Source: a virus
Direction: 5' to 3' (one strand)
Length of the DNA: 64,000 bases
IMG/VR virus record: IMGVR_UViG_3300044904_000056
Span: 32,001-96,000 of that record
In this document: positions 1,838-59,590 of the stretch, piece after piece
Numbering within the stretch: the stretch's first letter is position 1
Layout of the letters: every line of letters begins with the position of its first letter
The notes under the pieces: model-generated
Told to the model about the DNA's origin: nothing
Seen by the model: only the letters and a program-made list of their open reading frames with translations
The model's database searches: none
Translations under genes and position numbers: made by a program

Positions 1838-2779
1838 TCACTTCGTATCAAGTTCCTCAAATGGTGTAATCCATTGAGCGAAATTCTTCAGTAGTGACTG
1901 GAACGACTTGCTGATGAAGTAGCGCGTAATCTCAGCTTTGTCAATCTTGCCGCGCTGTCGTACAGCCTCAAAGACAACCCGGCGTACCTTTTTCTCTTCT
2001 GGGTGATTATAGGAAGAAACAGAAAGGTCCATAAGCATCAGATTCAAATAGTATCTCTCGCGGACTCCTTTTCCATAGAGCAGCCGGTAGCGGTTGCCCC
2101 GCTTGTAGACTTTCTTCTCCACCTCGGGGGTGAACAGCTCTTCCATATCCTTGTAGGAAGCTAGAAGCTCCCGGATGGTTGTCTCGCCTAGACCTTTAGC
2201 AATTCCTGGAATGTTGTCACTCCCATCTCCTATCGCTGCCCGAAGCTGAAGAAATTGATGCGGGGTGAGTCCCACCTTCTGCCGGAAGTTGCCGTGCGTA
2301 TAGAGTTGCGTCTTTATCGGACTCCATACGCTGGTATTCTCTTGAACCAGTTGGAACATATCCATGTCCGAGGAAACAACAATCCGCTGCCCGTTCAAAG
2401 CTTTCTCCTGGCATATCATAGCTATCAAATCGTCAGCTTCTGTCTGAGGGAAGTACAGCTGCGAAAGATTCAGCTGCCGGAGGACTCGCTGGCACTCCTC
2501 GATTTGAGTGATGGTACTCTGAAATTGTTTTTCCTCTTCCTTCGTAAAGTGCTGATGTCGGTGGGCCTTATATTCAGGGAACTTCTGCTTGCGGTAGGCA
2601 CTATGCCCTGTATCCCAGCAGACAATCCCAACATCCGGCTGAAACTGAGCTAGCATTCCGTGGATAGCATTCAGAGCGCCATAGACAACTTGGACTGGTT
2701 TTCCGTTCGCTGTAAGAATCGGGAGGCGCTTGGCAATGCGCCAACAGAGATTGTGACCGTCAATGATGATGGTTTTCAT
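1838..2779 (-). CDS. 5'-3' exonuclease / flap endonuclease (PolI N-terminal, T4 RNase H-like)
   Basis: IIDGHN, SAYRKQKFPEYKAHR, EADD, SSDMDMFQ, GDGSDNIPGI; start reassigned to ATG 2779 (ATGA overlap). Confidence 0.93.
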   Translation of the reverse strand: MKTIIIDGHNLCWRIAKRLPILTANGKPVQVVYGALNAIHGMLAQFQPDVGIVCWDTGHSAYRKQKFPEYKAHRHQHFTKEEEKQFQSTITQIEECQRVLRQLNLSQLYFPQTEADDLIAMICQEKALNGQRIVVSSDMDMFQLVQENTSVWSPIKTQLYTHGNFRQKVGLTPHQFLQLRAAIGDGSDNIPGIAKGLGETTIRELLASYKDMEELFTPEVEKKVYKRGNRYRLLYGKGVRERYYLNLMLMDLSVSSYNHPEEKKVRRVVFEAVRQRGKIDKAEITRYFISKSFQSLLKNFAQWITPFEELDTK

Positions 2780-3102
2780 ATCAGGTCCATTGTCGCTTGC
2801 CTTCCGTACACTTGTGCCGCTGATAGATACTTCCCATCCTTGTAAGTCATCATTCCCCAAAACCACGAAGCCATATGTTCTGGGCCGCAGCAACAATCTA
2901 TAGTTGCATCTATCATCCAGAGTGCATCGGCTCCAAAGTTCAGACAATTTCTTCCGTAAGCAAGAGAAACTGCACCAAGAGGACTACATGCAACTCCTAC
3001 TGCCTGCTCTAGCCCACATACTTCGCACATCAACTTTTCGCCTCCGGGAAAAGTCTGGTCATGGAGTTCCTTCGCTTTGTGGTAACTAATCAACCCACTC
3101 AT
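2776..3102 (-). CDS. hypothetical protein (CxxC)
   Basis: ATG overlaps RecA stop; CEVCG; resembles common phage hypotheticals. Confidence 0.65.
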   Translation of the reverse strand: MSGLISYHKAKELHDQTFPGGEKLMCEVCGLEQAVGVACSPLGAVSLAYGRNCLNFGADALWMIDATIDCCCGPEHMASWFWGMMTYKDGKYLSAAQVYGRQATMDLI

Positions 3103-5997: not shown

Positions 5998-8664
5998 TCA
6001 TGTAAACTGGCTAGGGATTACAAATTGTCCCTTTTCGGAACCATGCTCTAGCTCCGTCATTGTTCCAAGATTAGGCCCTAAGAAACAATCAGTATCCAGC
6101 GGCACTTCGCAATACCATCCTGTCTTTTCCTCAATCCACTTCCGGTCGGTCATAAAGAGATGGTGCTGGTAAATTACGTCTTGGGCTTCCTTGTGATAGA
6201 TATCTATGTAGCCCGCATCGTGGACCGTGATAATGTATTTCGACTTCATCCTGTACTTGCGAAGCCAGTCCGCCATCCGCCATCCTGCGCACCACGTCAC
6301 ATCTGAAGCATCCCCTTGTATCGGTGCGTTGATTCCCTGCCGAACTGCTTCCGCCCTCTGGGCTTCGTTCTCACTATCAACTTCAGGAAGCCTTCTTGGC
6401 CTAAAGAAATGGGAGAAGACAATCTTGTGTTTCTTGATGTAGTTCTCACGCTCTAGACGGTAGGCTAGACAATCGTCATACTTGCCAAAATACCTATTGA
6501 TGAATTTCTCTGCCCAACGCTTTGATTTCTGAAAGTCTGCCGCAAGGGCTTCTGGCCCCCGTCCGTAAAGCACCCCAAAGGATACCATCGACTTAGAATC
6601 AGTCCGCTTCTGCTTCTGCTCCTCTTTCGGGAGAGCGTTCCACTGTTCCTCTGTAAGCTCAAATCCCGCCATCGCTCCCATCTTGTGCGGGTCCTTACCA
6701 GACAGAAACTCCTCCAACATCACATCGTCTTTTGCCCGGTCACAGAACAAGCGCATTTCGATTTGCCTGGAATCCTGTTCCATGATGAAGTACCCATCAC
6801 CATGGGAACAGAACTGAGTTCGCAACTCCATCGCCAGCTTGTTGCGCTTGGGAAAGTTTTCGTGATTCGGGTCCTCACTCGACACCCGGCCTGTTACCTG
6901 ACCGTCCACCCGGTAGGTCGTATGCGTCTTCCCATCTGTACCTCGCCATCGGGGCAGAGGGTCTATGTACTTAGATTTCGCTGAGACTAGCTCGCTGCGG
7001 TCAATGATAATCGTCAGAGGCCTACTCTTCCGCTTTTTGTTGAGGCGTTCTAGGACTTCCCGTTCAACTGATTCCTGTTTCCCTGAAGGAGTCTTCCAAA
7101 GAGGCTCATAGTCTAGGATATCAAAGACCAACTTGCGTTTCTCATCTGGGGAGTTCAGGTTGATGAGTTCACGGTTGGACTCGAACAGCTCAAAGACTTT
7201 CTTCTTAGGATTTGGGATTGGCCTCTTGTAGCTATTGACCCGCTCGATGAGTTCCTTGAGGAGTTCCTTGTCCTTCCATTTCTGAAGAGCCTTGATTTCA
7301 GACAGGTTGACTAGCTTTTCGTCGTGCTCTGCAATTCTCCTCTCATAGACCTTCTCTAGCTCCTTGTTACGCTCCTTGTCAATCCTGACCCCGTTGATCT
7401 CCTGTGTAGCGGCAGTCCAATTGTGATACATAATCGGAAACTTGAAAGGACGTTCCCAGAGATGTTGCCTCTTCAGCTTTTTCCGGAGATGGAAGAACAG
7501 CCTCCGGGTTGCGATGCAGTCCTTAATGTTGTAGTCATACAGGATATCAGCCGGGACAAGGTTCAGATTCCCACCACTCTCGGGATTTGCCTCAGGATGC
7601 TCAATGCAATACTGCTGCTTAGGCCGGTCATAGTCCATCATCCCTATGAATGCAGCCAGCTCTTTCAGGCCCTTCCCACCCCTTCGTTCGTTCAGGCAGT
7701 AGGCCATCAGCTCTGTATCAGCGTAATAGCCGTGACCTTTCCTTCCGCCTAGCCAGATGTCGTGCAGCACAGCGGTGTAGACAAAATCGTATTTGCCGTA
7801 ATGGAGCAACCACTTCAGGTCTTCGTCTTCCCAAAGCTCTCGGGTAGCCTCTAGGCATTCCTCAGGATGGACCTTGATACCGTCTATCTGAACGCGGCTA
7901 TAGACCGGCAGGACGGCTCCTACGTTGTCCCCCCAGGAGTAGCCTATGCAGCCGATTTGAGGCTTGCGAAACCGGGCGAACGGTGAGAGTGTACTGCCTT
8001 CAATATCGGTTGAAGGATACTCGGCTTTCTTGACGATGTCTACAACTTCCTGGAGAGTCCGCTTGTCCTTGACTACAATCTGTTCAAATTTCTCCCTGCT
8101 GATAGCGTGTTTCGGCGGATAGGCAATCCGCTTCGCTGTCTTCAGCACCTCTAGGAACTGCTTGTAGTTAGCCTCTGTTTTGTTGCGCAGGTACCACGCT
8201 GGGTGGAAGGATATGACATACTGCCAAGGCCCTCCGTTCACGACGTTCCCGTGAAGCTTTAGGACTCCAGTTTTGTTGAGAACACTGCGGAGAGGAGAGG
8301 CTCCAAGGAGGATGACTACTTTCGGACGGAGCGAATGTATTTCACGAAGCAGATGGGGCCGACAGTGATTAATAGCGTAGGCTGGTAGTTTGTTCCCTGG
8401 CGGACGGCACCTAGCCGCATTGGTGAAGCGGCATTTCTTCGGGTCAATCCCAACTTCCTCGATAGCTTCCCGGAGAACAAGGCCTGCTTCTCCACACCAA
8501 GGGTAGCCATTCTCATCCTCGTGCTCACCAGGCGCTTCCCCGACAAACAGGAATACCGGCTCCTCACTGCCCTCCCCATTCATCTGTGGGGATTTGCAGC
8601 CCTTATAGAGCTGGCAAGGCTTGCAAAATCTATCAGGTTGTCGGAGAACGTTGAGACTAAGCAT
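5998..8664 (-). CDS. polA: family A DNA polymerase with N-terminal family-4 uracil-DNA-glycosylase-like domain and 3'-5' exonuclease
   Basis: CKPC..GEAPG..CRPPGN..HP (UDG4 with Fe-S Cys); DIEG exo; TGRVSS; DSRQIEMR (motif A); KSMVSFGVLYG (motif B); TVHD (motif C). Confidence 0.95.
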   Translation of the reverse strand: MLSLNVLRQPDRFCKPCQLYKGCKSPQMNGEGSEEPVFLFVGEAPGEHEDENGYPWCGEAGLVLREAIEEVGIDPKKCRFTNAARCRPPGNKLPAYAINHCRPHLLREIHSLRPKVVILLGASPLRSVLNKTGVLKLHGNVVNGGPWQYVISFHPAWYLRNKTEANYKQFLEVLKTAKRIAYPPKHAISREKFEQIVVKDKRTLQEVVDIVKKAEYPSTDIEGSTLSPFARFRKPQIGCIGYSWGDNVGAVLPVYSRVQIDGIKVHPEECLEATRELWEDEDLKWLLHYGKYDFVYTAVLHDIWLGGRKGHGYYADTELMAYCLNERRGGKGLKELAAFIGMMDYDRPKQQYCIEHPEANPESGGNLNLVPADILYDYNIKDCIATRRLFFHLRKKLKRQHLWERPFKFPIMYHNWTAATQEINGVRIDKERNKELEKVYERRIAEHDEKLVNLSEIKALQKWKDKELLKELIERVNSYKRPIPNPKKKVFELFESNRELINLNSPDEKRKLVFDILDYEPLWKTPSGKQESVEREVLERLNKKRKSRPLTIIIDRSELVSAKSKYIDPLPRWRGTDGKTHTTYRVDGQVTGRVSSEDPNHENFPKRNKLAMELRTQFCSHGDGYFIMEQDSRQIEMRLFCDRAKDDVMLEEFLSGKDPHKMGAMAGFELTEEQWNALPKEEQKQKRTDSKSMVSFGVLYGRGPEALAADFQKSKRWAEKFINRYFGKYDDCLAYRLERENYIKKHKIVFSHFFRPRRLPEVDSENEAQRAEAVRQGINAPIQGDASDVTWCAGWRMADWLRKYRMKSKYIITVHDAGYIDIYHKEAQDVIYQHHLFMTDRKWIEEKTGWYCEVPLDTDCFLGPNLGTMTELEHGSEKGQFVIPSQFT

Positions 8665-8957
8665 TATTTTGACTTAGACTTTGTTCGCTTAACTTCCTGC
8701 AAGCCTAGATGGAACCCGATGCAGGTCAACAGCTTGAAAAGTTCAACTTGAGCCTTCGCAGCCTCTTTCTCGTTCTCAGAACCTGCTTCTGTTATTAGAA
8801 AGTCCGTAGCCATCATACCAATCTTCGGGTTGAGGCCGACTTTCCTGAAAACAGAATCCCAGTCCTTTGGCCACCGCTTGTCCTTCCTTGCTGCCTTCAG
8901 CAGGACATCGCAGCGATTCCAGAATTGTTTCTGCTTGTACTCTTCAAAACGGCTCAT
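8664..8957 (-). CDS. hypothetical protein
   Basis: Overlapping start/stop with neighbours. Confidence 0.65.
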   Translation of the reverse strand: MSRFEEYKQKQFWNRCDVLLKAARKDKRWPKDWDSVFRKVGLNPKIGMMATDFLITEAGSENEKEAAKAQVELFKLLTCIGFHLGLQEVKRTKSKSK

Positions 8958-9343
8958 TGCGCTTTCTCCTTCAACTCCTTGATACGGTCCATCGCGTCTT
9001 CTAGCTCAACTACGGTTGTATAGCAGAGCATAAGACAGACAACCTCCTTTTCCGCAGCAGCCAAACCATTCTGGACACTAAATATCTCTAGCTGCTGTGC
9101 CCAGCGATATTTGGGAAGAGGGAGAACTCCATCCCGGATAGACTCGATAAGCTTCTGAAGATAGTGCATTGCTTTATCGAGGTCCTGTAGTCCGTTTTTC
9201 TTACGCCAACGCGTCACATATTTCGTGACCTGCCCCTCGAAATATCCTAGATGGTTATGGGCTGCTAAGTCCCAGTGCTGAAATTTCGCCTGGTAGTGCT
9301 CTCCGCCCACCTGGTAGTCATTCGCCTTCTTGTCAGATTCCAA
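8954..9343 (-). CDS. DUF3310 / SaV-like protein
   Basis: QVGGEHY...GQVTKYVTRWRKKNGLQDLDKAMHYL; start TTG 9343 after GGAGG. Confidence 0.8.
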   Translation of the reverse strand: MESDKKANDYQVGGEHYQAKFQHWDLAAHNHLGYFEGQVTKYVTRWRKKNGLQDLDKAMHYLQKLIESIRDGVLPLPKYRWAQQLEIFSVQNGLAAAEKEVVCLMLCYTTVVELEDAMDRIKELKEKAQ

Positions 9344-9707
9344 TTTGTGCCTCCTTGGGAATGTCCTCCAAACGCGCCAGACCAACATCCCAGTGGTCCG
9401 CGTGATTCTCTTTAGCCAGACGTTCTGCTTCATTCCGAGCAGGCGTATGACTGGTAGCCTTGATAAATTTCGTATCCCAATCCCTGCGACCGTTGAAGTA
9501 GAGCTTGACTTCATACCAGTCTTCCTGAACAACAATCGGCAGGATAATCCGGTGCTCTGCCGGCTTCGTCATCACCTTCGGAAAGAAGTACCTCTTGCGA
9601 AACTCGTGAGGCTTAGGATGGAATCGCGTTGTCCGCTTCTCTGGGGCTTTCCTGGCCCGGACCTTCTTTGTCTTCCGTGTTGGTCCTGCCTTTTTCTTTT
9701 GCGTCAT
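9333..9707 (-). CDS. basic hypothetical protein
   Basis: RBS-preceded; overlaps the 3' end of the TS-like gene. Confidence 0.5.
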   Translation of the reverse strand: MTQKKKAGPTRKTKKVRARKAPEKRTTRFHPKPHEFRKRYFFPKVMTKPAEHRIILPIVVQEDWYEVKLYFNGRRDWDTKFIKATSHTPARNEAERLAKENHADHWDVGLARLEDIPKEAQIGI

Positions 9708-10800
9708 CGAGTAGCCTCACACAGGTGGAGTAGACTTCTTTCGATATTCCATACGTGCACTGCTCGTAATAGTTCAAAGCCAATTCCATAAACGGGGAGG
9801 GAAGGTGCAGAATTTCACTAGCGACCCACTCCGCCCTATACTGCCAACCTGGCTCTTTCACCCAGCGGAAAATAGTAAGCATTTGGGGAATGGTTTTTAT
9901 CCAGTACCCATCTGGAGGGGGAGGCCATGTCGGATTTGGAAGCTCTCTTGGTTTGTCCGTCTTGAAAGCCCTAATCTTCTCTACTTTGAGGAGGACGTGT
10001 TGAAACTCTTCGTCAGTAACTGTAGAGAATCCTGGTACGCATTCGGCCTTAACACTTGCTTGATTCATCACCTCTGATTCATCAAAGGCTCTTTCGAGGA
10101 TATTCCCTAGAGTCGGCTTGTAGAGTTCTTCATAATAGTGGAGATTTTGAATAATGTACGTCAGCTTCCCTATCTTCGCCCCCAGACAACCCGCTATATA
10201 GGCATGAATATGGGAGAACTGAACCGCGTTGTACGGCGCTCCCCAAATGAGGTCGCAACTCCGCTGCACTACAGTCTGGTCTAGAATCCCGTTTCTCAGC
10301 CGTAGATATATGACATTGTTGCACGGGTAGTCATTTGACTTCAGAAGATTGTCCCGCTCCGGGTCCCAAAGGCTGATAACTGCTTGTCTTGATAGAGGCT
10401 CCCGCTTTAGCTTGTCGATGGCAATGCTAATTTGGTCTACAGTTAGATATCCTCCAATTGCTGAAGGCCAGCGTCTCATCCGCAGCCCGTAGGCCCCATT
10501 GAAATCCTGCTGATTACCATCCGCAAACTTCCTCATGTTCTTGTTAAAGTAACATATCCACTCGACATTCCCGCTGCCTGAGAGAATCCAGATTACTTCA
10601 GCAAGGGCGAAGAATGGATTGAAGTTGCGTCCAGGAATCACCATCCAGCAATATCCTGGCAGCTCATAGTTCAAACAGACAGGTTCTTCTAGCTCTAAGC
10701 AAGGACCATGGCGGGTGGGAATCTCCTTCCCATGATTTGCTATTTCGCGGACCAGAGCGAAGTAGAAGTCGCCAAGACCACGGCCTGAATAAGTTTTCAC
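9613..10800 (-). CDS. thymidylate synthase-family enzyme, probable dUMP hydroxymethylase
   Basis: NPFFALAE, GAYGLR, SRQAVISLWDP, YPC (catalytic Cys), QRSCDLIWGAPYN (Asn indicates dUMP specificity), NLHYY; adjacent to hmU-modifying genes. Confidence 0.85.
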   Translation of the reverse strand: MKTYSGRGLGDFYFALVREIANHGKEIPTRHGPCLELEEPVCLNYELPGYCWMVIPGRNFNPFFALAEVIWILSGSGNVEWICYFNKNMRKFADGNQQDFNGAYGLRMRRWPSAIGGYLTVDQISIAIDKLKREPLSRQAVISLWDPERDNLLKSNDYPCNNVIYLRLRNGILDQTVVQRSCDLIWGAPYNAVQFSHIHAYIAGCLGAKIGKLTYIIQNLHYYEELYKPTLGNILERAFDESEVMNQASVKAECVPGFSTVTDEEFQHVLLKVEKIRAFKTDKPRELPNPTWPPPPDGYWIKTIPQMLTIFRWVKEPGWQYRAEWVASEILHLPSPFMELALNYYEQCTYGISKEVYSTCVRLLDDAKEKGRTNTEDKEGPGQESPREADNAIPS

Positions 10801-10816
10801 AATCGTTCCTCCTCAC

Positions 10817-11686
10817 CTAGATAGAACGCTCCCCTCTAGGAAAACGTAAGTTGCCTTGGAACCCGTTGTAGAGAGAGCGAGGCCTGCCTTCTCCCAGACG
10901 TACCCGCTCATACTTGTCCCACTCACAAAGTGCATTCTGCAAATCCTGCGCATGTATGTCCGGCATTCCTGCTTGAAAAATTTTCGGGCTGATTTTGTCG
11001 TAGAGTTCGTCTAGGCATTCCTTCCAATCCGCTTCCTTCCACTTAGCCCTCTTATCCCGCCCTATTACACGATTCAACCCTCGTTTGCTCCCAGGGCCAG
11101 AGATAGCCCAAGTTGACCAATCCTTTGCGTGCCGAAGCGTAGCATACTTCACATCAGCAATGACCTGCCCTGTCATAAAGCTTCCCATATCTTTCTGGTC
11201 GTGCAGCCTGTCGTAGAATTCCGCAAGCGTATCGCCATCTCTCGGGCGGATTTCTTTTCTTGCTCCCCACATCGGTGTCAGGACTTGCTTGGCTAGGTAT
11301 CGGGCTTTCGATTGATGATCTGGACCTGCGTGAATCATATATGCTCCGGTGAAGACTTTCTCGCCGTCTTTCTTTCGCTGCTCCAATACTCTGATGAACT
11401 CGTCTGGGTGCCAAGGAACAGGATAACCTAGCTCATCTAGGGTCTCCGGCCAATTGACAAAACGTGAAACCGTCATAGCGAACCAGAGGTCCTTATCTTC
11501 CGCGTGAGGCTCCCGCCAATGCTCCCGTACCCAAATCGTGACCGTGTCTAATTCCCGGAACACGTTGCAGAACCGATAGCGCTGAAGTATTGGGTCCCGT
11601 GTCCATGGTCGAGGCTTGCCAGCTTGCTTCCGCTTGTAGATTGCGTGGCGTTCAAGGATGAAGCGAAGGAGAGGATTGATGTTCAT
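10817..11686 (-). CDS. aGPT-Pplase1 / 5-hmdU DNA kinase helical-domain family (thymidine hypermodification), C-terminal RFPR
   Basis: ERHAIY..K..GKPRPWTRDPILQRYRFCNVFRELD, FTGAY, GPGSKRGLNR, QNALCEWDKY. Confidence 0.85.
   Translation of the reverse strand: MNINPLLRFILERHAIYKRKQAGKPRPWTRDPILQRYRFCNVFRELDTVTIWVREHWREPHAEDKDLWFAMTVSRFVNWPETLDELGYPVPWHPDEFIRVLEQRKKDGEKVFTGAYMIHAGPDHQSKARYLAKQVLTPMWGARKEIRPRDGDTLAEFYDRLHDQKDMGSFMTGQVIADVKYATLRHAKDWSTWAISGPGSKRGLNRVIGRDKRAKWKEADWKECLDELYDKISPKIFQAGMPDIHAQDLQNALCEWDKYERVRLGEGRPRSLYNGFQGNLRFPRGERSI
10821..10829 (-). promoter_or_regulatory. GCGTTCTAT phage promoter-like element
   Basis: Exact 9-mer 21 nt upstream of TS-like start, followed by GAGGAGG RBS. 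Confidence 0.65.
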
Positions 11687-12039
11687 CAGTTGCCTCTCCT
11701 TTGATTTTGATACAGACGTAGCCGTTCAGCCATATTCATCAGCTCGTTCGCCAGCTCTTCATCGCGGTAGGTGTAGTAACACTGAGTGTTGGACTTCTCT
11801 GCCATAGCTTCAAGATTGCTGATGATTTCGTCCAGGTCAACTCGGGGGCCACGGTGCTTCTTGCCGGCTTTCTTCTTATCTCGGCAGGATTTGCAGCGTT
11901 TTGGCATTTGGAATTCGGGATTTGTTGCCTGAAGACTTTTGTAGAAGCTTATCTCGCTCTCGTACATCCCCCAGTCCTCGTGGCAGTCTACGCATTGCCC
12001 CATCGAAACAAATGCTCCTCGATCTTTATCATCCCCCAT
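11686..12039 (-). CDS. zinc-ribbon (zf-trcl-like) protein
   Basis: CVDC..SE..FY..PKRCKSCR. Confidence 0.7.
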   Translation of the reverse strand: MGDDKDRGAFVSMGQCVDCHEDWGMYESEISFYKSLQATNPEFQMPKRCKSCRDKKKAGKKHRGPRVDLDEIISNLEAMAEKSNTQCYYTYRDEELANELMNMAERLRLYQNQRRGN

Positions 12040-12398
12040 TTTCTCTTCCTTTCCGCTTTCTCCACTCTACCCAACGTCTCTTCGTAGCTTTACCAATTTT
12101 TAGAAGAGCCTGCTTAGTATGCTTGTATCCTTTGCTATTTTGATTCCCAAATCCGAAATGTTTGCCCGCAGCATTTTTATTCCCTAATTTGGAGAGGCTC
12201 ATCTTTTTACGGCTCATAGGAGAAAGTTTTCGCCCTAAACAGTATTGATTTCCTGTATGAAGTTTGATTAGTCTGCGGCGGTGTTCTGCAGACAATTTCT
12301 TTCCCTTCCTGTTATGATTCCCCGCCCCAATCTTATTACCCATCAATCTTATTACCCATCATCCTTCTTCTCATCTTCTTTCGAGTAGTCGCAGACAT
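12029..12398 (-). pseudogene. NUMOD3-repeat protein (homing endonuclease remnant) frameshifted by a 16-bp tandem duplication
   Basis: ATG 12398 reads MSATTRKKMRRRMMGNKI then stops because AATCTTATTACCCATC is duplicated (12329-12344, 12345-12360); removing one copy restores the frame into the 105-aa NUMOD3 ORF; no nuclease domain. Confidence 0.65.
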
Positions 12399-12399
12399 T

Positions 12400-13023
12400 T
12401 TAATACCCAAGGAACCATCCCCACAACCAAGCTAGAATAGTTTGTAATCCATCCTGATAAGGGATAACTCTGACATCTGCCCCTACTTCTCTGAGTCTCT
12501 TCTCACTACCTAATACGGCCTTGTATTTTGGATAGAGGGATTTGTCCGGGTCAACTGGCCGAGGGTCCTTCCGCTGAATCCTGCGCTTTACCATCCGCTG
12601 AAGGCACTTCTCTAAGGGGGTATCCATAAAGCCAAATATCCAATGCGTATGCGGTAGGCTTCTTGCCAGGTCAATCCAACGCTGGGTCAGGGTAGCAGCC
12701 AGCGCTCCCTCGAAAACAACATTCCCCCGCCTGGAAAGGTCTGTGATTGCCTTGGAAGCGTAATCGGCACGGGTGCTGCCCCTGTAATAGCTTTCGTCAA
12801 TCGCGTCATAGCCGCCCGTTGTTATCCGGTAAGGCCCAAGCAGGGCTGTCTTCGTAGGCCCTGTATCGAGGACGTAGGCGAGCACCTTTCCATTCCCAGG
12901 GTTAATCAGAGGCGTATTGGAAAAGCTCTCTAGAAGGGATTTTGCTAGGGTTGTCTTGCCACTGGCATTCGTGCCCCTGATGTTGATGACGATATGCTTC
13001 AGCCGAGGAAATCGTTCCGTCAT
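12400..13023 (-). CDS. P-loop nucleotide/DNA kinase of the hmU hypermodification type, N-terminal RFPR
   Basis: INIRGTNASGKTT, GGYD, VVFEG, DTPLEKCLQRMVKRR. Confidence 0.8.
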   Translation of the reverse strand: MTERFPRLKHIVINIRGTNASGKTTLAKSLLESFSNTPLINPGNGKVLAYVLDTGPTKTALLGPYRITTGGYDAIDESYYRGSTRADYASKAITDLSRRGNVVFEGALAATLTQRWIDLARSLPHTHWIFGFMDTPLEKCLQRMVKRRIQRKDPRPVDPDKSLYPKYKAVLGSEKRLREVGADVRVIPYQDGLQTILAWLWGWFLGY

Positions 13024-13463
13024 TTCCCTTTCTCCAGCTTCGACAGATTCAAAACACCCGACTCGATAACCCGCATTGCCTTCATATAGTCGTCACCCTT
13101 GAGAAAGGGCAGGTCCGGTATGCGGATAACGGGAGGCTCCGCATACGCACCAAGAGGCGAGAACTTCCGCCGATGAGCTGGAAACTTTTTCAACAGCTGC
13201 TTGTAATGTACTGGGCTCATATAGATGATGCGGTCAGCCCATTCGACCATCTTCTGAGTCACAGGCTTTGACCTTTCGTCCTCCTCTAGATAGTACGCCT
13301 GGTTGAGGCTATAGAGAGCCTCCCGGACTTTCTTCGCAATGGTTCCCTGGTAGGGGCCTTTTTGCAGCCCTGCCGATTCAACGTTCATCCCGAGGTATCG
13401 CCCGATAGCCGCTGCGACCTGAGATCGGGAACGGTTGTTGGTGCAGATAAAGAGGATACGCAC
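13020..13463 (-). CDS. low-molecular-weight protein-tyrosine-phosphatase / ArsC-like protein
   Basis: ILFICTNNRSRS (CX5R), SAG, WADRIIYM, IPD. Confidence 0.85.
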   Translation of the reverse strand: MRILFICTNNRSRSQVAAAIGRYLGMNVESAGLQKGPYQGTIAKKVREALYSLNQAYYLEEDERSKPVTQKMVEWADRIIYMSPVHYKQLLKKFPAHRRKFSPLGAYAEPPVIRIPDLPFLKGDDYMKAMRVIESGVLNLSKLEKGK

Positions 13464-13610
13464 TGTGCTTTCGACTCCCTTCTAGGCCCGACTGGTTTTA
13501 GGCCAGCCTATTGTTGGTAGCGGACCCAACTAGCCAGTGGCAGGGTGCTAGCAGAGTTCGTTTACGTGGGGATATAGCTAAACTGGTGTAAAGGCTAGTT
13601 TTGAGCCCTG

Positions 13611-14222
13611 CTAGGGGCCTATCCGGGGGAAGCGTAGGGGGCCAGTCCTCCTGGCCCTGACTATTAGCTCAACAGTAGCCTTCAGCTTCTCCGCTGGGTG
13701 AAAGTAGAAGAACTTAGCTTGGGCCGAGAAGATAGGTATATGCCGCCACTTCCTAGCCGGAGGCTTCGCATAGCTCACGACCTCCATCCCCGCTAGCATC
13801 TCGTTCACACGTTCCCGGTGTTTTTGGACAAGGGCGTAGGGCTGTTCTAGGTAGAACCAGCAGCCCGGATATTGCAGCCACTGTCGGATATTCCAATGGT
13901 CCTGGGTATGCTCCGTCTGCTGAAGGGGAGCCACCCCTAGAGGCAGAATCACCGTAGAGTCCGGAGGGGGCCAAGTGTGGACTGGCTTGAGCATCTCTTT
14001 CCAATCGCAATCTCCTCCAATATAGTTGTATCCTTGCCAGTAAGCACCTACAGCATCGGCGTAAGTCTCCGCATCCCGCAGGGAGTTCTTCTTCACAGGG
14101 ACCATAGTCAGAATGGTAACCTGCTTGCCTTCCTGAATCCACTGCTCGATATGAGCCCCTAGCGAAAGGAAGGCATCATCACTGTGAGGCTCTACGATAA
14201 CCAGGCGGTCATTTATGGGCAC
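13611..14222 (-). CDS. PIG-L/LmbE-family N-deacetylase, C-terminal RFPR
   Basis: VEPHSDDAFLSLG, later DH, YLEQPY; start GTG 14222 after GGAGG. Confidence 0.8.
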   Translation of the reverse strand: MPINDRLVIVEPHSDDAFLSLGAHIEQWIQEGKQVTILTMVPVKKNSLRDAETYADAVGAYWQGYNYIGGDCDWKEMLKPVHTWPPPDSTVILPLGVAPLQQTEHTQDHWNIRQWLQYPGCWFYLEQPYALVQKHRERVNEMLAGMEVVSYAKPPARKWRHIPIFSAQAKFFYFHPAEKLKATVELIVRARRTGPLRFPRIGP

Positions 14223-14814
14223 GTTTCGGCCTCCGGAAGACGCTGAGATGCCGCCCATACCAGTTGGAAGTAATTCTTTCGTCAGCTAATATCGCTTCGC
14301 ACAACTCCTTGGTGACCTTCTTTTCAAAGGTGAATCCGGCAAGCACAAATAGTTGCCGCCAATAGCCTTTAGGCTTGCAGTTCACGTGGTACCGGCCCCA
14401 TTCAGAAGAGTCGATGGACAGGAGCACCCATTTTGAGGAGAGCCGTTTCACCGTATCCACTAAGACTTTCTCAGAGGACTCCGGGATGTGCTCGAATACA
14501 TCCCACGAGGTTACCAGGTCAAATTTTTTGTCCAAATGGAAGGACTTTGATAGGTCGTGGGCTATGTATTTCGCTCCTTCCGCGAATCTGCTGTTGAACT
14601 CAGAACCATCCACCCCATAAGCCCTTACTCCTAGCTCTGACAGCCGATTCACAAACGACATCGTACCACAACCCAGGTCAATGCAACGCTTGGGGTGAAA
14701 TCTGTTGAAGATGAGCTCTGCTAGATATTTCGAGGACACGTGGGGTCCTTTTGTGGACCTGGTGCGATTTTTGAACCACTTCAGTGGATAGAGTTCACTT
14801 AGCTTTTCTTCCAT
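14209..14814 (-). CDS. class I SAM-dependent methyltransferase
   Basis: IDLGCGT, GVDGS, FDLVTSWDVFEHI, HVNCKPKGYW. Confidence 0.88.
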   Translation of the reverse strand: MEEKLSELYPLKWFKNRTRSTKGPHVSSKYLAELIFNRFHPKRCIDLGCGTMSFVNRLSELGVRAYGVDGSEFNSRFAEGAKYIAHDLSKSFHLDKKFDLVTSWDVFEHIPESSEKVLVDTVKRLSSKWVLLSIDSSEWGRYHVNCKPKGYWRQLFVLAGFTFEKKVTKELCEAILADERITSNWYGRHLSVFRRPKRAHK

Positions 14815-15308
14815 AGTCGTGGGAACCTCATCGGGAAATTAGGTCTTGCAAATTCTCCGAAAAATTCTTTGGCAGCAGTATCATAAGCCTTCGCTGCGGC
14901 TATCGGATTGTCGAAGGAACCTAGATGAATAACTTTCCAATATACACAAATCTGCGCATACCATTTCCTAGCACCTTTGTGCCAAGAGACACCTTTGAAT
15001 CCTGATTTGTTATTTGAATGCTTTCCTTGGTTAGCCAGATTCTGCGAGTTAGAAGCATCTCTCAAATTATCTTTTTGACAATCTAGCCCATTTCCATTCT
15101 TATGGTCTATCCCTTTGCGCCCTAATATAAAATTGTGTAGAAGAAAATTAGGAACTCCCATTTGTCCGTGAGCTGCGTACGACTTACCCTTAGAGCCAGA
15201 TGTATAGTGCCATATGCCCTCAGCTGTTACACGTTCATAATCTTCGTCATCAACAAGTGCATAGGCTCTTATCTTTCCTTTTCGATTGCGAAGCGGAATT
15301 TTCTTCAT
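14799..15308 (-). CDS. HNH-AP2 homing endonuclease, C-terminal RFPR
   Basis: ALVDDEDY, IDHKNGNGLDCQKDNLR, SGFKGVSWHK..W.AQI..HLGSF..AAKAYD..FGEFARPNF. Confidence 0.9.
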   Translation of the reverse strand: MKKIPLRNRKGKIRAYALVDDEDYERVTAEGIWHYTSGSKGKSYAAHGQMGVPNFLLHNFILGRKGIDHKNGNGLDCQKDNLRDASNSQNLANQGKHSNNKSGFKGVSWHKGARKWYAQICVYWKVIHLGSFDNPIAAAKAYDTAAKEFFGEFARPNFPMRFPRLWKKS

Positions 15309-16426
15309 CGTCTAAACTCGTCAAAAACTTCATCATATAGTTTGTAGGCTGAATGATTGTCGTTTACATATTCCCTCGCTTCCTTTCTAGGATACCCTCT
15401 CACATCATATTTCATAATCGCTTCAGGATACTTGGCCAGGTCAGAGATAGGCAGTACCAAATTATCTGGGATGGCACTTCGGAGAAGGTTTTTGTGCACT
15501 ACAGGGACGCAGCCATAATATAGAGCCTCAACAATTGTGTTGTTGTAGGAACCTCTCCGGTAGGCTTTATATTTTGCCCTATGCCCTTGAAAGTCAGCCA
15601 TGAATCCCGCTCTGGAAAGGATTTTTGCCCGTCTCTCTACTGAGACCCAACCATAGTAGGTTGCTAAGCCCTTCCCTGAGTATTGTGGGGCAAAAAAATC
15701 CTTACCAACGACCTTCTTCCAGCCATTTTCTTTTCTCATGTTATAGTATTCAATGCCGGAATTGTAGAGCTTTACTTCGTAACCTTTGTCGAGGAGTCGA
15801 GGTACCCCATCAAAGAAGGGTTTGATTCCTTTCACATTCTTCCATTGAGGCATCCATACAACGCGATTCTCAATGCGTTCCTTTTCGGAAGGCTTTCCGA
15901 TAGGAATAAAAGGAATATAAACGGTCTGTACCGGATAGCCTGCTTTGACGAGAGGCTCTCCATAAGCAGGCTGAGTCACGAGAGTCTTCTCGCATAGCGG
16001 CAAAACTTGTTCCCCAAACTCCTTGTATGTATCCCAATAAGCATCCGAGATATAGCCGACAATCGGTATATCCAGTTTATTCAGCCTCTTTAACAAGGCC
16101 ATAAAGACAGGACTGCCCCCATAAGCTTTTGTCGGATGCGGACAGAGGAAGCTCAACATCACTACATCGTAGGATGTTAGAAAGGCTAAAGTCTCTCGAT
16201 AGTTTTCCCTATGGTGTGGAGCGTAGCCATCAATAGTGATGTAGGAATCCCCACCACGGATTAATTTTCTTTCAGGCAACAAGAGGGGATGTTTTGTTTT
16301 CTGGTTGGCGCTAACGAGGACGTGAAAGGTGTCACCTTTCTGGTCTGCTACCTTCCGATAGGTTCTCAGGCGAGTGTTGATGCCCCCTACGGAAGAGGTA
16401 GGCCAATGCAGGACTGCAATTTTCAC
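15305..16426 (-). CDS. GT-B glycosyltransferase (candidate DNA glycosyltransferase)
   Basis: N-terminal VGGINT, KNVKGI, TIVEALYYGCVPV; start GTG 16426 (GTGA overlap); embedded in the DNA-modification cluster. Confidence 0.75.
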   Translation of the reverse strand: MKIAVLHWPTSSVGGINTRLRTYRKVADQKGDTFHVLVSANQKTKHPLLLPERKLIRGGDSYITIDGYAPHHRENYRETLAFLTSYDVVMLSFLCPHPTKAYGGSPVFMALLKRLNKLDIPIVGYISDAYWDTYKEFGEQVLPLCEKTLVTQPAYGEPLVKAGYPVQTVYIPFIPIGKPSEKERIENRVVWMPQWKNVKGIKPFFDGVPRLLDKGYEVKLYNSGIEYYNMRKENGWKKVVGKDFFAPQYSGKGLATYYGWVSVERRAKILSRAGFMADFQGHRAKYKAYRRGSYNNTIVEALYYGCVPVVHKNLLRSAIPDNLVLPISDLAKYPEAIMKYDVRGYPRKEAREYVNDNHSAYKLYDEVFDEFRR

Positions 16427-17043
16427 GATGCTTTCCTGAAGAGGAGATAGATGCTCCTCTTGTTTGCTGATTGAGCTACTAGCCGATAGCCCAGCCCTAG
16501 GAAGCAAGTCTCCATCTCTAGAGCCGGCAGGCGTCTCGAATCGGTCAGGACTACCCAAGCGGCTTTGTCAAAGACGGCTTCTGTGACAGTTCTGTATTGC
16601 CTCTTGGCTTTACTGAGAGTCCAATCGGGGAAGTCTGCCACTACAAGGTCTGGATGCTGAAAGAGACTATCTATCACTACCGATTGAGCCCCACCAAGAG
16701 GCTCTATGATAGAGGTAGACCAGCTATGGTGCCGCCCTGCTTCCAGGATGTACGCATAGCAGCGCCTCTCATTTGAGTAGACTTCGTGCTTGTTGGGATT
16801 GAATAGCAGCTGAAGGATTTGAGCGTTGACTCCCACCCCACCAAACAGTTCAACGATGTTCTTTGGTTGCGGAGCAATTTGGCTGACGAGCTCAAAGAAT
16901 CGCCTAGCTTCAGCCTCGGTCTCCCCAGGTTCGTAACGGAGCCGCCAGAATATGCCCCGCTTCGATGGCAGAGTGTTCTTCGCAACTCGGGGGAGTTTAG
17001 AGGGGAGCATGATGCGTGCTCCGGCCACAAGGATTGATTGCAT
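16423..17043 (-). CDS. methyltransferase-fold protein
   Basis: IVELFGGVG SAM-binding-like motif; DLVVADFP. Confidence 0.55.
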   Translation of the reverse strand: MQSILVAGARIMLPSKLPRVAKNTLPSKRGIFWRLRYEPGETEAEARRFFELVSQIAPQPKNIVELFGGVGVNAQILQLLFNPNKHEVYSNERRCYAYILEAGRHHSWSTSIIEPLGGAQSVVIDSLFQHPDLVVADFPDWTLSKAKRQYRTVTEAVFDKAAWVVLTDSRRLPALEMETCFLGLGYRLVAQSANKRSIYLLFRKAS

Positions 17044-17125: not shown

Positions 17126-18304
17126 CTACGCTGCTGCCTTGCAAGCCTTCCCGAAGATTTTGAGCTTGGCCCCGAGATGAGACACGTCACCCGTGAACAG
17201 AAACTTCCCGGCAATCTTCGCCTCTTGCCAGTCCGACTTCTTGAGCCCCAGCTTCTCCAGCTTGGTCTTCGGATAGAGATAGACGCGAAAGCCTTCGTCC
17301 TTGTCCGGGCGGATGAATCGTGCCCAAGGCCCACCAGGATACTTGACATAAAGCTCCCCGCTGCTCTTGGTCTCAACCTCCGCACCCAGCGCCTCTGCCT
17401 TGCTAGACACTAGGATGTCCTTCACCGCACTGGAGAGCTTACCACTCTTGGAAGACTTCTGCTTCTTTTCCTTGTGATGGTGATGCTTGTGTTCCTTTTT
17501 GGACACTTCCTTGTCCTCCTCTTTCTCGTGCTTCTTTTCTTCCCTGGGATGGTGATGCTTATGACCCTTCTCCTTCTTTCTCTTGTCTCCCTCCTCTTCC
17601 CTATTAGCTTTCAGAACTGCGATACAATTCTTGGACTCAACGCAACGCTGGCACTCTGGCACATCCGGGTCGGGGTATTTCCCGAAGCAATCTTCAATTC
17701 CGGAGGGAATCGGTATGGACGGTGCCCGGGGTTTATACGTTGCCGGGTCAATCTGTACGAGGGGGGAGCCTTTCGACTCCCCCCTCTCGCTGCTGTCGTC
17801 CGAGGCATCCTCAGAGCTATCATCCTTCTTTTCTGAAGAATCGTCCTTCTCTTTCCCGTGGTGCTTCTTGCTACCCTTCCTGCCCTTCGGAGGCTCTGGC
17901 TCCTCAGAGCTGTCGTCCTTCTTGTCGGAGGCATCAGAGGCGTCACTAGCATCGCTCTTGTCCGATGCGTCGCTAGCATCCGAGGCATCACTGGCATCTG
18001 AAGCATCAGAGGCGTCAGAAGCGTCACTGGCGTCAGAAGCTTCAGAGGAGCTATCGTCCTTCTTGTCGGATGCGTCGGAAGCATCCGATGCGTCGCTAGC
18101 GTCCGAAGAATCTGGAGCTTCAGAACTGTCGTCTGGCTCCTTCTTCTTCGTTGAGGACTTCTTGGGAGACTTCTTTGAGGACTTTGGAGTTTCTTCCTCA
18201 GAGCTGTCGTCAGACTTGTCCGGCTCCTCTTCCGAGGAATCGTCAGCAGCCTTCCCTGGTTTTGCCTTGTGCTTTTTCTTCTTGTCTACTTTCTTTTCGG
18301 CCAT
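17126..18304 (-). CDS. low-complexity Ser/Asp/Lys/His-rich protein with SDA repeats, central Cys4 site and C-terminal folded domain
   Basis: (SDA)n and DDSS repeats, CFGKY..CQRC..C, HKHHH tracts. Confidence 0.8.
   Translation of the reverse strand: MAEKKVDKKKKHKAKPGKAADDSSEEEPDKSDDSSEEETPKSSKKSPKKSSTKKKEPDDSSEAPDSSDASDASDASDASDKKDDSSSEASDASDASDASDASDASDASDASDASDKSDASDASDASDKKDDSSEEPEPPKGRKGSKKHHGKEKDDSSEKKDDSSEDASDDSSERGESKGSPLVQIDPATYKPRAPSIPIPSGIEDCFGKYPDPDVPECQRCVESKNCIAVLKANREEEGDKRKKEKGHKHHHPREEKKHEKEEDKEVSKKEHKHHHHKEKKQKSSKSGKLSSAVKDILVSSKAEALGAEVETKSSGELYVKYPGGPWARFIRPDKDEGFRVYLYPKTKLEKLGLKKSDWQEAKIAGKFLFTGDVSHLGAKLKIFGKACKAAA
17925..18125 (-). repeat. degenerate 9-bp tandem repeat encoding Ser-Asp-Ala
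   Basis: Synonymously diversified repeats such as gcatcaga/gcgtcaga/gcgtcact. Confidence 0.85.
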
Positions 18305-19697: not shown

Positions 19698-20387
19698 CTA
19701 CTTCTTTTTCTTCGGAGCGACCACCTTCACCTTCGCAGCCACGTACTCCTTCAAAGGTTTTGCTGGCGAAAAGCGTATCTTATTACTTGCTGGCTTCGCA
19801 GGGAACGTCTTATGCTCCCCTGTGAATGGAACGATTCCCTTTCGTTTTGGCAGGGCCTTCCGGTAGGCAACCCGGATACGGCCAATCTCCGGCAGGCGGA
19901 AGAATCGGTCATTCTTCAGACCGTGGTGAGCTTCCGTCACCAGAGCTTCGTAGATGGACCGGACAATTTTGGTTGTCTGGCCTGTTTCCTTCGCAATTGC
20001 AGTGTAGAGTTTCATCTTGCGTGATTCTCCTTTGTCTCCCTCTTTGGGGAATATGATTATGTACTTCTGCCGGGTCCGGGGTCCGCTATAGAGCTTCGCA
20101 CCAAAATGCTCCTGGAGGAGGCTGATAATCTCCTCAGAAAGGTGCGTGGTGTAGCAGCCGTGAAACTTCTTCACTACGATTTCGTGAAGCTGTTCCTTGG
20201 GTACGTTGAAATAGTCAATTCCTAGACGGCGGTACAAATTCGCCATCTCGATATCGGCGTGGGCTCCTCCGTGGCGGAGGCGTTCTAGTTTATCTGTCTT
20301 TTCCTGACGGAAGAGACGGTTGTCAGCGAGACGCTTTGCTTTTTGTTCGGGAGTCTCGTTTGAGGTTATGTGGAAGGCGTGACTCAT
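19698..20387 (-). CDS. hup: HU/IHF-family DNA-binding protein (domain 19698-20015) with in-frame N-terminal extension
   Basis: IAKETG..RLPEIGRIRV..RKGIVPFTGE..PAKPASNKIRFSPAKPLKE; internal ATG 20015 has its own AAGGAG RBS. Confidence 0.85.
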   Translation of the reverse strand: MSHAFHITSNETPEQKAKRLADNRLFRQEKTDKLERLRHGGAHADIEMANLYRRLGIDYFNVPKEQLHEIVVKKFHGCYTTHLSEEIISLLQEHFGAKLYSGPRTRQKYIIIFPKEGDKGESRKMKLYTAIAKETGQTTKIVRSIYEALVTEAHHGLKNDRFFRLPEIGRIRVAYRKALPKRKGIVPFTGEHKTFPAKPASNKIRFSPAKPLKEYVAAKVKVVAPKKKK

Positions 20388-21839: not shown

Positions 21840-22232
21840 TCACTTCTGAATCTTCCGTTGAACTTCCCTCAGACGGGCCTTCGTCCAGTTCCGAGCAGCC
21901 GGATGGAGCATGTATATTGGTTTGCGTAGTGGTACATAGCCACATTCCTTGAAAGTTTTCTGTGCTACCCTACCACACACTAGTATAATGTCTGGGTCAA
22001 GCCTAATCAGATTTTCCGCAAGCCAATCCGGATCGGGTTTGCCGTGATGTTTGGCCTTAGTGACTAATTCCCGACAGACATTAGTCAACAACAGCCGTTC
22101 TTTATTCTGTTCGCCCACCAGCTTGTAGAGCCTACGGCCAGAAGCGTTCAGGGGGTTGATCTTGAAGTAGCGAGGAGCACGGCCAGTTCGATAGCCCCAC
22201 ATCGTTTCGAGGACTGCTACGATTGGCCCCAT
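21840..22232 (-). CDS. uracil-DNA-glycosylase-superfamily protein
   Basis: SGRRL, LTNVC, LDPDIILVCGRVA, MLHPAAR. Confidence 0.7.
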   Translation of the reverse strand: MGPIVAVLETMWGYRTGRAPRYFKINPLNASGRRLYKLVGEQNKERLLLTNVCRELVTKAKHHGKPDPDWLAENLIRLDPDIILVCGRVAQKTFKECGYVPLRKPIYMLHPAARNWTKARLREVQRKIQK

Positions 22233-50907: not shown

Positions 50908-51376
50908 GTATAGTAGTCCTTCCTTTCTTCACATTTTTCCAACGAATTGATTGTGCTTTTCTCATCTTGCAGCGTGCTGTCTTGGTGTGTTTATGGCCTA
51001 GGAAATTCTGGTTGCCTTTCATTCCTTCGCTTAACCTGCGCCGATGATCCTCGGTGAATTTGTACCCGAGACAATTATGGTTACCTTTCAGGGCCCTACT
51101 CTTGGCTTCGCTGTTTGTCAGCCTTCTCGGGAACCTAGCAATTCTAGGAATCCCTAGATAGTGAATAGCCCTTTGCAACAATTCAAGACTATCACAAAAG
51201 GAACCAAGCCCCATATTACATCTGATACAAAGAACTCCTCTAAATGCTCCTGTTCTATGGTTATGGTCTAGCTGAGGCCGGTCTGGGGGCTTATCCCCAC
51301 AGACAGCACAGCAGCCTTCTTGAAGTTTTAGAAAATCCTTTTTCAACTCTTGGTTTTGATTAGAGTTGTATGCCAT
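50888..51376 (-). CDS. endonuclease VII-type homing endonuclease + NUMOD3, with RFPR
   Basis: QEGCCAVC..LDHNHRTG..RGVLCIRCNMGLG. Confidence 0.88.
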   Translation of the reverse strand: MAYNSNQNQELKKDFLKLQEGCCAVCGDKPPDRPQLDHNHRTGAFRGVLCIRCNMGLGSFCDSLELLQRAIHYLGIPRIARFPRRLTNSEAKSRALKGNHNCLGYKFTEDHRRRLSEGMKGNQNFLGHKHTKTARCKMRKAQSIRWKNVKKGRTTIHATHSD

Positions 51377-52991: not shown

Positions 52992-52994
52992 ATT

Positions 52995-55755: not shown

Positions 55756-55763
55756 GTTTCACT

Positions 55764-56312: not shown

Positions 56313-56314
56313 GA

Positions 56315-58101: not shown

Positions 58102-58102
58102 G

Positions 58103-59544: not shown

Positions 59545-59590
59545 CCTACCCCCTTTGTAAAGGGGTGAGTTTCCCCACCCCCTCAAAAAA

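Follow-up and report, generated by a model that had tools for sequence, protein, structure and literature searches.

In M6-type phages, the pathway of thymidine hypermodification runs from a dUMP hydroxymethylase and a 5-hydroxymethyluracil (hmU) DNA kinase (5-HMUDK) to aGPT-Pplase2, which is the amino-acid:DNA transferase (ADDT), and then to tailoring by pyridoxal phosphate (PLP), radical S-adenosylmethionine (SAM), FAD or acetyltransferase enzymes. To our knowledge, all characterised post-replicative thymine hypermodifications proceed via phosphorylated hmU and an amine:DNA transferase. The subject of the present work is a viral gene cluster located at positions 8954-17043 of a window of 64,000 nucleotides, this being bases 32001-96000 of the 104,040-bp linear IMG/VR record IMGVR_UViG_3300044904_000056 (CheckV completeness ~72%). 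An initial annotation, prepared from the sequence of the window, had proposed that the cluster couples the first enzymes of the M6-type pathway to a sugar-type tailoring set.

In the T-even system, the gp42 hydroxymethylase and the alpha- and beta-glucosyltransferases give rise to glucosyl-hydroxymethylcytosine, and base J of kinetoplastids is glucosyl-hmU. In the MshA/MshB (mycothiol), BshA/BshB (bacillithiol) and PIG-A/PIG-L (glycosylphosphatidylinositol anchor) pairs, it is established that a GT4 N-acetylglucosamine (GlcNAc) transferase acts first and an LmbE deacetylase second. We know of no solved biosynthesis for the thymine sugars of phages SP-15, YerA41 and Carin-5. That these phages carry glycosylated thymines is, however, documented (PMC12686479, PMC13697223), and sugar-type thymine modification as such is not without precedent, on which point the initial annotation needs correction. 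In Carin-5, glycosyltransferase genes and a gene resembling GlcNAc deacetylases adjoin that of a PolA polymerase fused to uracil-DNA glycosylase (UDG) (PMC12686479), a fusion reportedly characteristic of phages whose genomes contain modified T (PMC13697223), and surveys exist of viral glycosyltransferases near thymidylate synthase (TS) homologues (bioRxiv 10.1101/2023.12.21.572611). The literature searched contained no description of a set comprising a glycosyltransferase, an LmbE protein and aGPT-Pplase1, nor of an amino-sugar hmU base.

Like the loci of M6, PaMx11, ViI, PhiW-14 and SH-Ab 15599, the present cluster has a TS homologue of the dUMP-hydroxymethylase type, a member of the P-loop hmU-DNA kinase family, aGPT-Pplase1 and the same order of genes beside the DNA polymerase. 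Unlike them, it has a GT-B glycosyltransferase, an LmbE deacetylase, methyltransferases and a low-molecular-weight (LMW) phosphatase in the tailoring slot. With the T-even and base J systems it would share, as proposed here, the formation of a hydroxymethylpyrimidine and its subsequent O-glycosylation in DNA by an enzyme using a nucleoside diphosphate sugar. It departs from the T-even system in that the base would be derived from uracil (the Asn of dUMP-specific enzymes is kept) and in that identity of the glycosyltransferase to the T4 alpha-glucosyltransferase (AGT) is only 14-16%, and from both systems in the deacetylase partner, which implies conversion of an N-acetyl sugar to an amino sugar, and in having aGPT-Pplase1 as an obligatory companion. 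The MshA/MshB, BshA/BshB and PIG-A/PIG-L pairs have the same two folds and the same order of action, with the metal motif of the deacetylase intact in the cluster and, as in mycothiol synthesis, a phosphatase nearby; those pairs act on small molecules or lipids, whereas the genetic context of the cluster points to DNA. Finally, a UDG-PolA polymerase beside glycosyltransferase, deacetylase-like and aGPT-Pplase genes is shared with SP-15, YerA41 and Carin-5, where the sugars are on thymine, but the glycosyltransferase and deacetylase families of the cluster have no homologue in any deposited phage and no linker-building genes were recognised. Particular to this phage is the presence of the sugar set together with a classical kinase, a phosphatase and two methyltransferases.

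Organisation of the cluster

On balance, and by a modest preference, the locus is read here as a sugar-type thymine-hypermodification cluster, in which hmU-DNA would receive an N-acetylhexosamine that is then de-N-acetylated and possibly methylated; the DNA of the phage probably carries an amino-sugar base. All genes of the region are on the minus strand (window 8954-17043). The inventory of the initial annotation was correct, each gene that it named being found on that strand and in that interval, with two amendments: the start of the glycosyltransferase moves to 16426, and two of the cluster genes encode homing endonucleases as opposed to pathway enzymes. The genes central to the argument, with the polymerase, are as follows.

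5998..8664, minus strand: UDG-exonuclease-PolA fusion polymerase of 888 aa, encoded immediately downstream of the cluster (Pfam UDG 2e-27; DNA_pol_A_exo1; DNA_pol_A 5e-64)
8954..9535, minus strand: DUF3310 protein (PF11753, E 6e-7; conserved domain at residues 70-191; phrog_5839, 3e-34)
9613..10800, minus strand: TS homologue, predicted dUMP-hydroxymethylase type, 395 aa (PF00303, E 2e-28)
10817..11686, minus strand: aGPT-Pplase1 (HMUDK_hel; PF18723, E 4e-47), with an RFPR tail at 10835-10846
12400..13023, minus strand: predicted P-loop 5-hmdU DNA kinase (HMUDK; PF18748, 3e-6), with RFPR at 13003-13014 (residues 4-7)
13020..13463, minus strand: LMW phosphatase-fold protein with the CX5R(S) loop CTNNRSRS (PF01451, 4e-11)
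13611..14222, minus strand: predicted PIG-L/LmbE-family N-acetyl-sugar deacetylase, 203 aa from a GTG start (weak PF02585 match; motif and fold), with an RFPR tail at 13623-13634
14209..14814, minus strand: class I SAM methyltransferase, Methyltransf_23 (PF13489, 4e-11)
15305..16426, minus strand: GT-B glycosyltransferase (by fold), 373 aa, candidate hmU-DNA N-acetylhexosaminyltransferase
16423..17043, minus strand: class I methyltransferase-fold protein, 206 aa (Atlas structure comparison)

The order kinase, aGPT-Pplase1, TS homologue and polymerase parallels that of M6 and SN1, where the ADDT, PLP and radical SAM genes precede the kinase; the sugar genes occupy that same slot here. This gene order bears out the earlier view of a thymidine-hypermodification locus with sugar enzymes in the tailoring slot, and the comparative data given below speak for a DNA-directed glycosyltransferase and deacetylase, but the glycosylation of phospho-hmU that the initial annotation allowed for is not favoured. 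The three early enzymes that it named (dUMP hydroxymethylase type, aGPT-Pplase1 and P-loop kinase) were confirmed by Pfam, alignment and homologues. Its failure to recognise an amino-acid:DNA transferase, PLP or radical SAM enzyme in the window extends to the whole 104-kb record. The search for aGPT-Pplase2 beyond the window that it called for gave no match to the ADDT profile (PF18724) at E <= 10 in that record, of which ~28% of the genome is by estimate missing, and the radical SAM profile (PF04055) likewise gave no match there. The SN1 aGPT2, PLP, radical SAM and Nmad5 proteins had no tblastn match in the record, PLP enzymes having been sought by tblastn only; flavin and acetyltransferase families were not included in the profile searches of this test. 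The cluster differs further from M6-type systems in that its relatives have the sugar pair without the kinase.

The glycosyltransferase and deacetylase

The glycosyltransferase open reading frame (ORF) as originally listed (417 aa, TTG start) is too long, the real start being a GTG at 16426, immediately behind the stop codon of the gene upstream. By sequence, the protein matched nothing in Pfam, PHROG, NCBIfam or the PDB, and its identity as a GT-B enzyme therefore rests on fold. The model, built with 40 homologues, has a predicted local distance difference test (pLDDT) score of 95 and comprises two Rossmann-like domains with a C-terminal nucleotide-sugar site, as expected of GT-B enzymes. The top structural match, both by Z-score (27.6) and by aligned length, was T4 AGT bound to HMU-DNA, followed by the UDP-GlcNAc enzymes BshA (25.5), TarM (25.1) and MshA (23.8). 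This top match, taken with the gene context, makes the protein a candidate T4 AGT-like DNA hydroxymethylpyrimidine glycosyltransferase. A profile search of 1.84 billion representatives recovered 227 proteins (56 with E <= 1e-30), so that the family is a small one with sharp limits. In a comparison set of 50,697 deposited phages, tblastn found no match for the glycosyltransferase or for the deacetylase, and the cluster as a whole gave no match to deposited phages by megablast.

The product of 13611-14222 is identified, from its motif and modelled fold, as a PIG-L/LmbE N-acetyl-sugar deacetylase. Its match to PF02585 (E 9e-4) is below the cut-off, but homologues pass this model, and residues E11, H13, D15, D16 and H109 (the EPHSDD motif and later His metal ligands) are invariant in 26 sequences. 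The model has a pLDDT of 90, and the top Foldseek matches were all LmbE-family GlcNAc deacetylases, namely chitobiose deacetylase, teicoplanin Orf2*, Dbv21, BshB and MshB.

With respect to the methyltransferases, a relative was found in which methyltransferase and glycosyltransferase form one 589-aa protein, 64% identical to the Methyltransf_23 enzyme and 66% identical to the glycosyltransferase. The 206-aa protein had no Pfam, PHROG or PDB sequence match; its Atlas feature score to methyltransferase clusters was 0.93, and structure comparison gave TM values of 0.66-0.71 to PrmA, MTS and tRNA-U5 methyltransferases.

Conservation of the gene pair

A scan of IMG/VR with the glycosyltransferase alignment yielded 11 loci on contigs of 17 to 171 kb, in every one of which the deacetylase gene adjoins the glycosyltransferase gene. 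In eight, aGPT-Pplase1 and the TS homologue are encoded within a few kb of the pair; two of the other three records have aGPT-Pplase1 elsewhere on the contig, and the last has a TET/JBP (Tet_JBP) dioxygenase. The pair is thus tied to a hydroxymethylpyrimidine gene in every relative, since aGPT-Pplase1, the TS homologue or Tet_JBP is present in 11/11. What is conserved is a unit of glycosyltransferase, deacetylase and aGPT-Pplase1, to which the TS homologue usually belongs as well. Of the L006/L007 records (G007, G008), a 171-kb record rated as 100% complete encodes this trio of glycosyltransferase, deacetylase and aGPT-Pplase1, with no PF00303 and no Tet_JBP match.

The remaining genes of the cluster behave differently. 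No counterpart of the kinase, of the LMW phosphatase, of either methyltransferase or of the zinc-ribbon protein encoded beside aGPT-Pplase1 was detected in the 11 related loci, and the HMUDK model had no match in five of the related records, two of which are at least 95% complete. A single small P-loop protein was the only one of its kind seen near the cluster across these loci. Searches for related loci with the kinase returned nothing, and with the methyltransferase only one weak and unrelated locus. The same trio thus occurs without HMUDK in relatives, and the kinase is accordingly not an obligatory activating step before glycosylation; the earlier proposal that phospho-hmU is the species glycosylated is not favoured for this reason. 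The kinase and LMW phosphatase are confined to the close lineage of the phage, and close relatives keep these extras: homologues of the kinase (61% identity) and of the deacetylase (71%) were each found on a 7178-bp contig, their linkage in that relative resting only on the equal size.

Other tailoring genes are found in the relatives. A glycosyltransferase of the TAGT family, a known family of DNA-base glycosyltransferases, is encoded beside the pair in L009 (11107-11964) and L011 (9156-9974), in which an NT5C nucleotidase gene also precedes the TS gene, and L013 has an APS-kinase-like plus sulfotransferase-like gene (2031-3022) between the aGPT-Pplase1 and TS genes. These differences suggest that sugar-type thymine modifications form a family whose decorations vary.

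Supply of hmU and the early enzymes

The TS homologue is assigned, by sequence comparison, to the dUMP-hydroxymethylase type as opposed to thymidylate synthase proper. The assignment is drawn from three observations. In an alignment, the protein has the PCN and NPFF motifs in common with SPO1 gp29 and the M6-type enzyme and, like them, extends far at the C-terminus; E. coli ThyA and T4-type td formed a supported clade (99/96) that left out the TS homologue in a small maximum-likelihood tree; and the protein scored 82 bits against the ThyA equivalog model, which has a cut-off of 327 bits. It also lacks the C-terminus of TS, and its best matches among deposited phages were in SPO1-type and M6-type phages. 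A dCMP hydroxymethylase, as in a hydroxymethylcytosine system, was considered and rejected, since the Asn of dUMP-specific enzymes is present where T4 gp42 has Asp.

The DUF3310 protein, which the initial annotation had rightly placed in the cluster, had there been counted with the tailoring enzymes. Its relatives include several PHROGs labelled 'nucleotide kinase', and a homologue comes after the TS gene in five relatives (L003, L008, L009, L010 and L011); it is more likely, judging by these relatives, to be a nucleotide-pool enzyme of the nucleotide kinase type.

The polymerase has an N-terminal UDG domain (residues 30-175) fused to a family A polymerase with exonuclease (197-398) and polymerase (486-866) domains according to Pfam. 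The fusion architecture is that of SP-15-like polymerases, while the nearest sequences among deposited phages, 26-27% identical, are polymerases of hmU phages (SPO1-type and SP-10). The window also encodes a stand-alone UDG-superfamily protein of 130 aa (21840-22232), besides the polymerase-fused domain, and a 229-aa protein with a C-terminal HU-type DNA-binding domain (19698-20387). In SPO1, the gene for the HU-family protein TF1, which prefers hmU-DNA, sits between the genes for the gp29 hydroxymethylase and the polymerase.

The aGPT-Pplase1 protein is 40% identical to M6-type gp55 homologues and accompanies both amino-acid-type and sugar-type clusters. The motif Cys254-Glu255..Lys258-Tyr259.Arg261 is invariant across 10 sequences, and because this Cys-Glu motif is retained the protein is probably catalytic, at a shared early step on hmU-DNA. 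A complex prediction for aGPT-Pplase1 and the glycosyltransferase, run without controls, scored 0.00, which speaks neither for nor against an interaction. The kinase scores 27.3 bits against PF18748 (cut-off 27), and aligns from end to end with the SN1/M6-type kinase at 29% identity (E 4e-14); PF18748 was present in 9/14 of its homologues. Members of the HMUDK family have been shown to phosphorylate hmU in DNA (PMC8989533). A sequence search of the PDB gave no match for the aGPT-Pplase1 profile and only noise for the kinase. The LMW phosphatase has the N-terminal CX5R(S/T) loop of its family in the form C7-TNNRS-R13-S14, and its closest solved sequences are the YwlE arginine/tyrosine phosphatases (E 9e-7).

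Proposed pathway and alternative explanations

On the basis of family membership, the TS homologue would make 5-hydroxymethyl-dUMP, which the DUF3310 protein would help to phosphorylate, and the UDG-PolA polymerase would build hmU into DNA in place of T, this being the pre-replicative part of the pathway. The GT-B enzyme would then transfer an N-acetylhexosamine, most likely GlcNAc from UDP-GlcNAc, onto the hydroxymethyl oxygen of hmU in DNA, from which the PIG-L/LmbE enzyme would strip the acetyl group to leave a protonatable amino sugar. In this lineage, one or both methyltransferases may subsequently methylate the sugar, and the kinase and LMW phosphatase may serve to place and edit an additional mark, based on phosphate, on a fraction of the hmU.

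Several points weigh against this scheme. Both the donor sugar and the acceptor are deduced from family and fold, GT-B folds are alike, and the margin of AGT over BshA is ~2 Z units. What is proposed for the kinase and phosphatase is guesswork, and among solved relatives the latter comes nearest to protein phosphatases. The 104-kb record yielded no dCMP deaminase, dUTPase or dTMP nucleotidase, and full replacement of T is therefore not supported. In addition, that record is only ~72% complete and an identical deacetylase is encoded on a 207,626-bp contig, so that ADDT or other tailoring genes could sit in unseen DNA. Lastly, a second sugar island lies among head genes at window 49756-60795 (GT9-like, GT17-like, NAD epimerase/dehydratase, Methyltransf_23 and GIY-YIG/NUMOD3 endonuclease genes), which indicates that sugar enzymes in this phage have other targets too.

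The strongest competing explanation is an N-linked route, whereby the kinase makes 5-phosphomethyl-dU (5-PmdU), the glycosyltransferase and deacetylase build a free glucosamine compound, much as BshA and BshB make glucosamine-malate, and aGPT-Pplase1, behaving like ADDT, joins the amine to the base with displacement of phosphate. The kinase present is of the HMUDK family tested elsewhere (PMC8989533), the cysteine of aGPT-Pplase1 is invariant and catalysis by the paralogous Pplase2 enzymes relies on a cysteine (PMC13458397), the best structural matches include BshA and MshA, and deacetylation would unmask an amine nucleophile of the kind used by all characterised 5-PmdU-consuming enzymes. The route fits the window. 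It does not fit the relatives without the kinase, i.e. the five records in which the trio occurs in the absence of an HMUDK match, with but one small P-loop protein near the related clusters; moreover, T4 AGT is a better structural match than BshA, and M6 gp55, which is an aGPT-Pplase1, proved dispensable for group transfer in vitro (PMC8989533). Taken together, these data render the N-linked route improbable. It is distinctly improbable, too, that the sugar enzymes and methyltransferases act off the DNA, on virion or host glycans or on a small metabolite, and lie beside the hmU genes by chance, leaving the DNA with plain or phosphorylated hmU. Another large glycan island does exist among the structural genes, no family model names an acceptor for the glycosyltransferase, and GT-B similarity does not fix the acceptor; against this, the pair is linked to a hydroxymethylpyrimidine gene in 11/11 records from phages of very different size (40-171 kb contigs), a TAGT gene adjoins it in two loci, and the closest solved structure is that of a DNA glucosyltransferase.

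A third possibility is that the thymine carries an oligosaccharide or phospho-sugar on a linker, as in SP-15, YerA41 and Carin-5, with the cluster performing the first steps and the distant GT9/GT17/epimerase island extending the glycan. A UDG-fused PolA beside glycosyltransferase, deacetylase-like and aGPT-Pplase genes is indeed what has been described for those phages (PMC12686479, PMC13697223), the cluster encodes both a kinase and a phosphatase, and the window encodes many more glycosyltransferases. However, the lack of tblastn matches among deposited phages indicates that the glycosyltransferase and deacetylase are not the enzymes of Carin-5, YerA41 or SP-15, the polymerase is closest to the SPO1 type (and at the low identity given above), and the position of the second island inside the head morphogenesis genes points to glycosylation of the virion. 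This explanation is accordingly regarded as very doubtful.

On the preferred reading, then, the cluster together with its relatives speaks for a second route, whereby an N-acetyl sugar would be attached to hmU directly and would afterwards lose its acetyl group. If this is true, the resulting sugar base would bear a positive charge, akin to an aminated base J, and would be a new natural DNA base. The 227 proteins recovered in the profile search would constitute a new family of DNA glycosyltransferases with no representative in cultured phages, and aGPT-Pplase1, the role of which has been open since 2013, would gain its first functional handle. Such enzymes would be useful for labelling hmU in DNA.

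A recurrent tetrapeptide in the cluster

The initial annotation had drawn attention to the peptide RFPR on three enzymes of the cluster, and its presence at the C-terminal end of aGPT-Pplase1, at residues 4-7 of the kinase and at the C-terminal end of the deacetylase was verified; a fourth copy within the cluster forms the C-terminal end of the HNH-AP2 endonuclease. RFPR occurs 16 times in the 151 called ORFs, against 0.30 expected and a maximum of 3 in 2000 shuffles, and is the most enriched tetrapeptide of the proteome. Most of its carriers act on DNA, among them RecA, FtsK, homing endonucleases and DNA-modifying enzymes.

At the DNA level, RFPR sites number 19 on the coding strand, 16 of them in frame in called genes, versus 2 on the other strand, and the codons of both arginines vary between CGN and AGR. 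A DNA motif was rejected as the origin of the peptide in view of the varied Arg codons, the strand and frame distribution of the sites, and the retention of the peptide in orthologues. Kinase orthologues (52-83% identity) all begin with ..(R/K)RFPR.., two of them with the tag doubled, and deacetylase orthologues (59-80% identity) end in LRFPR, LHFPR or RRFPR, whereas distant homologues are without the whole tail that bears RFPR. Because orthologues keep the tag and distant homologues are without the entire tail, RFPR is interpreted, from these sequence comparisons, as an appended peptide under selection. A bolder model has the DNA of the phage carrying 5-(hexosaminyl-oxymethyl)uracil with N- or O-methylation, a cationic base not yet described, in addition to phosphorylated hmU, with aGPT-Pplase1, kinase and deacetylase brought to their substrate by RFPR as a lineage-specific docking tag that binds a hub protein or the sugar-decorated DNA itself; in this complete form the model seems rather unlikely.

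Other genes of the region and occurrence in peat

The cluster is interrupted by two homing-endonuclease genes, one of which lies between the glycosyltransferase and Methyltransf_23 genes. These and the other genes of the region are as follows.

8664-8957, minus strand: 97-aa protein, between the polymerase and DUF3310 genes
11686..12039, minus strand: 117-aa zinc-ribbon (treble clef) protein (PF13451, 5e-6)
12029..12346, minus strand: NUMOD3 protein, probable homing-endonuclease remnant (PF07460, 3e-5)
14799..15308, minus strand: HNH-AP2 homing endonuclease (AP2, 6e-7; HNH_3, 3e-4), with an RFPR tail at 14817-14828; the gene between the glycosyltransferase and Methyltransf_23 genes

A 392-aa protein (window 17126-18304) has long DASDAS/DDSSE acidic repeats and His/Lys-rich stretches, and no family match in Pfam or PHROG.

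The stretch was found in at least six peat metagenome runs of different studies. Contigs from the peat runs revealed no differences or joints relative to the stretch, and contigs of this kind cannot reveal base modification. In one run, contig depth reached ~2000-3900x, yet the sequence was in pieces of 400-900 bases, some of them variants with 95-99% identity; the high depth and fragmented variant contigs suggest a bloom with strain diversity. In a peat metatranscriptome, identical contigs covered most of the stretch, which fits expression, although carried-over DNA could also account for it.

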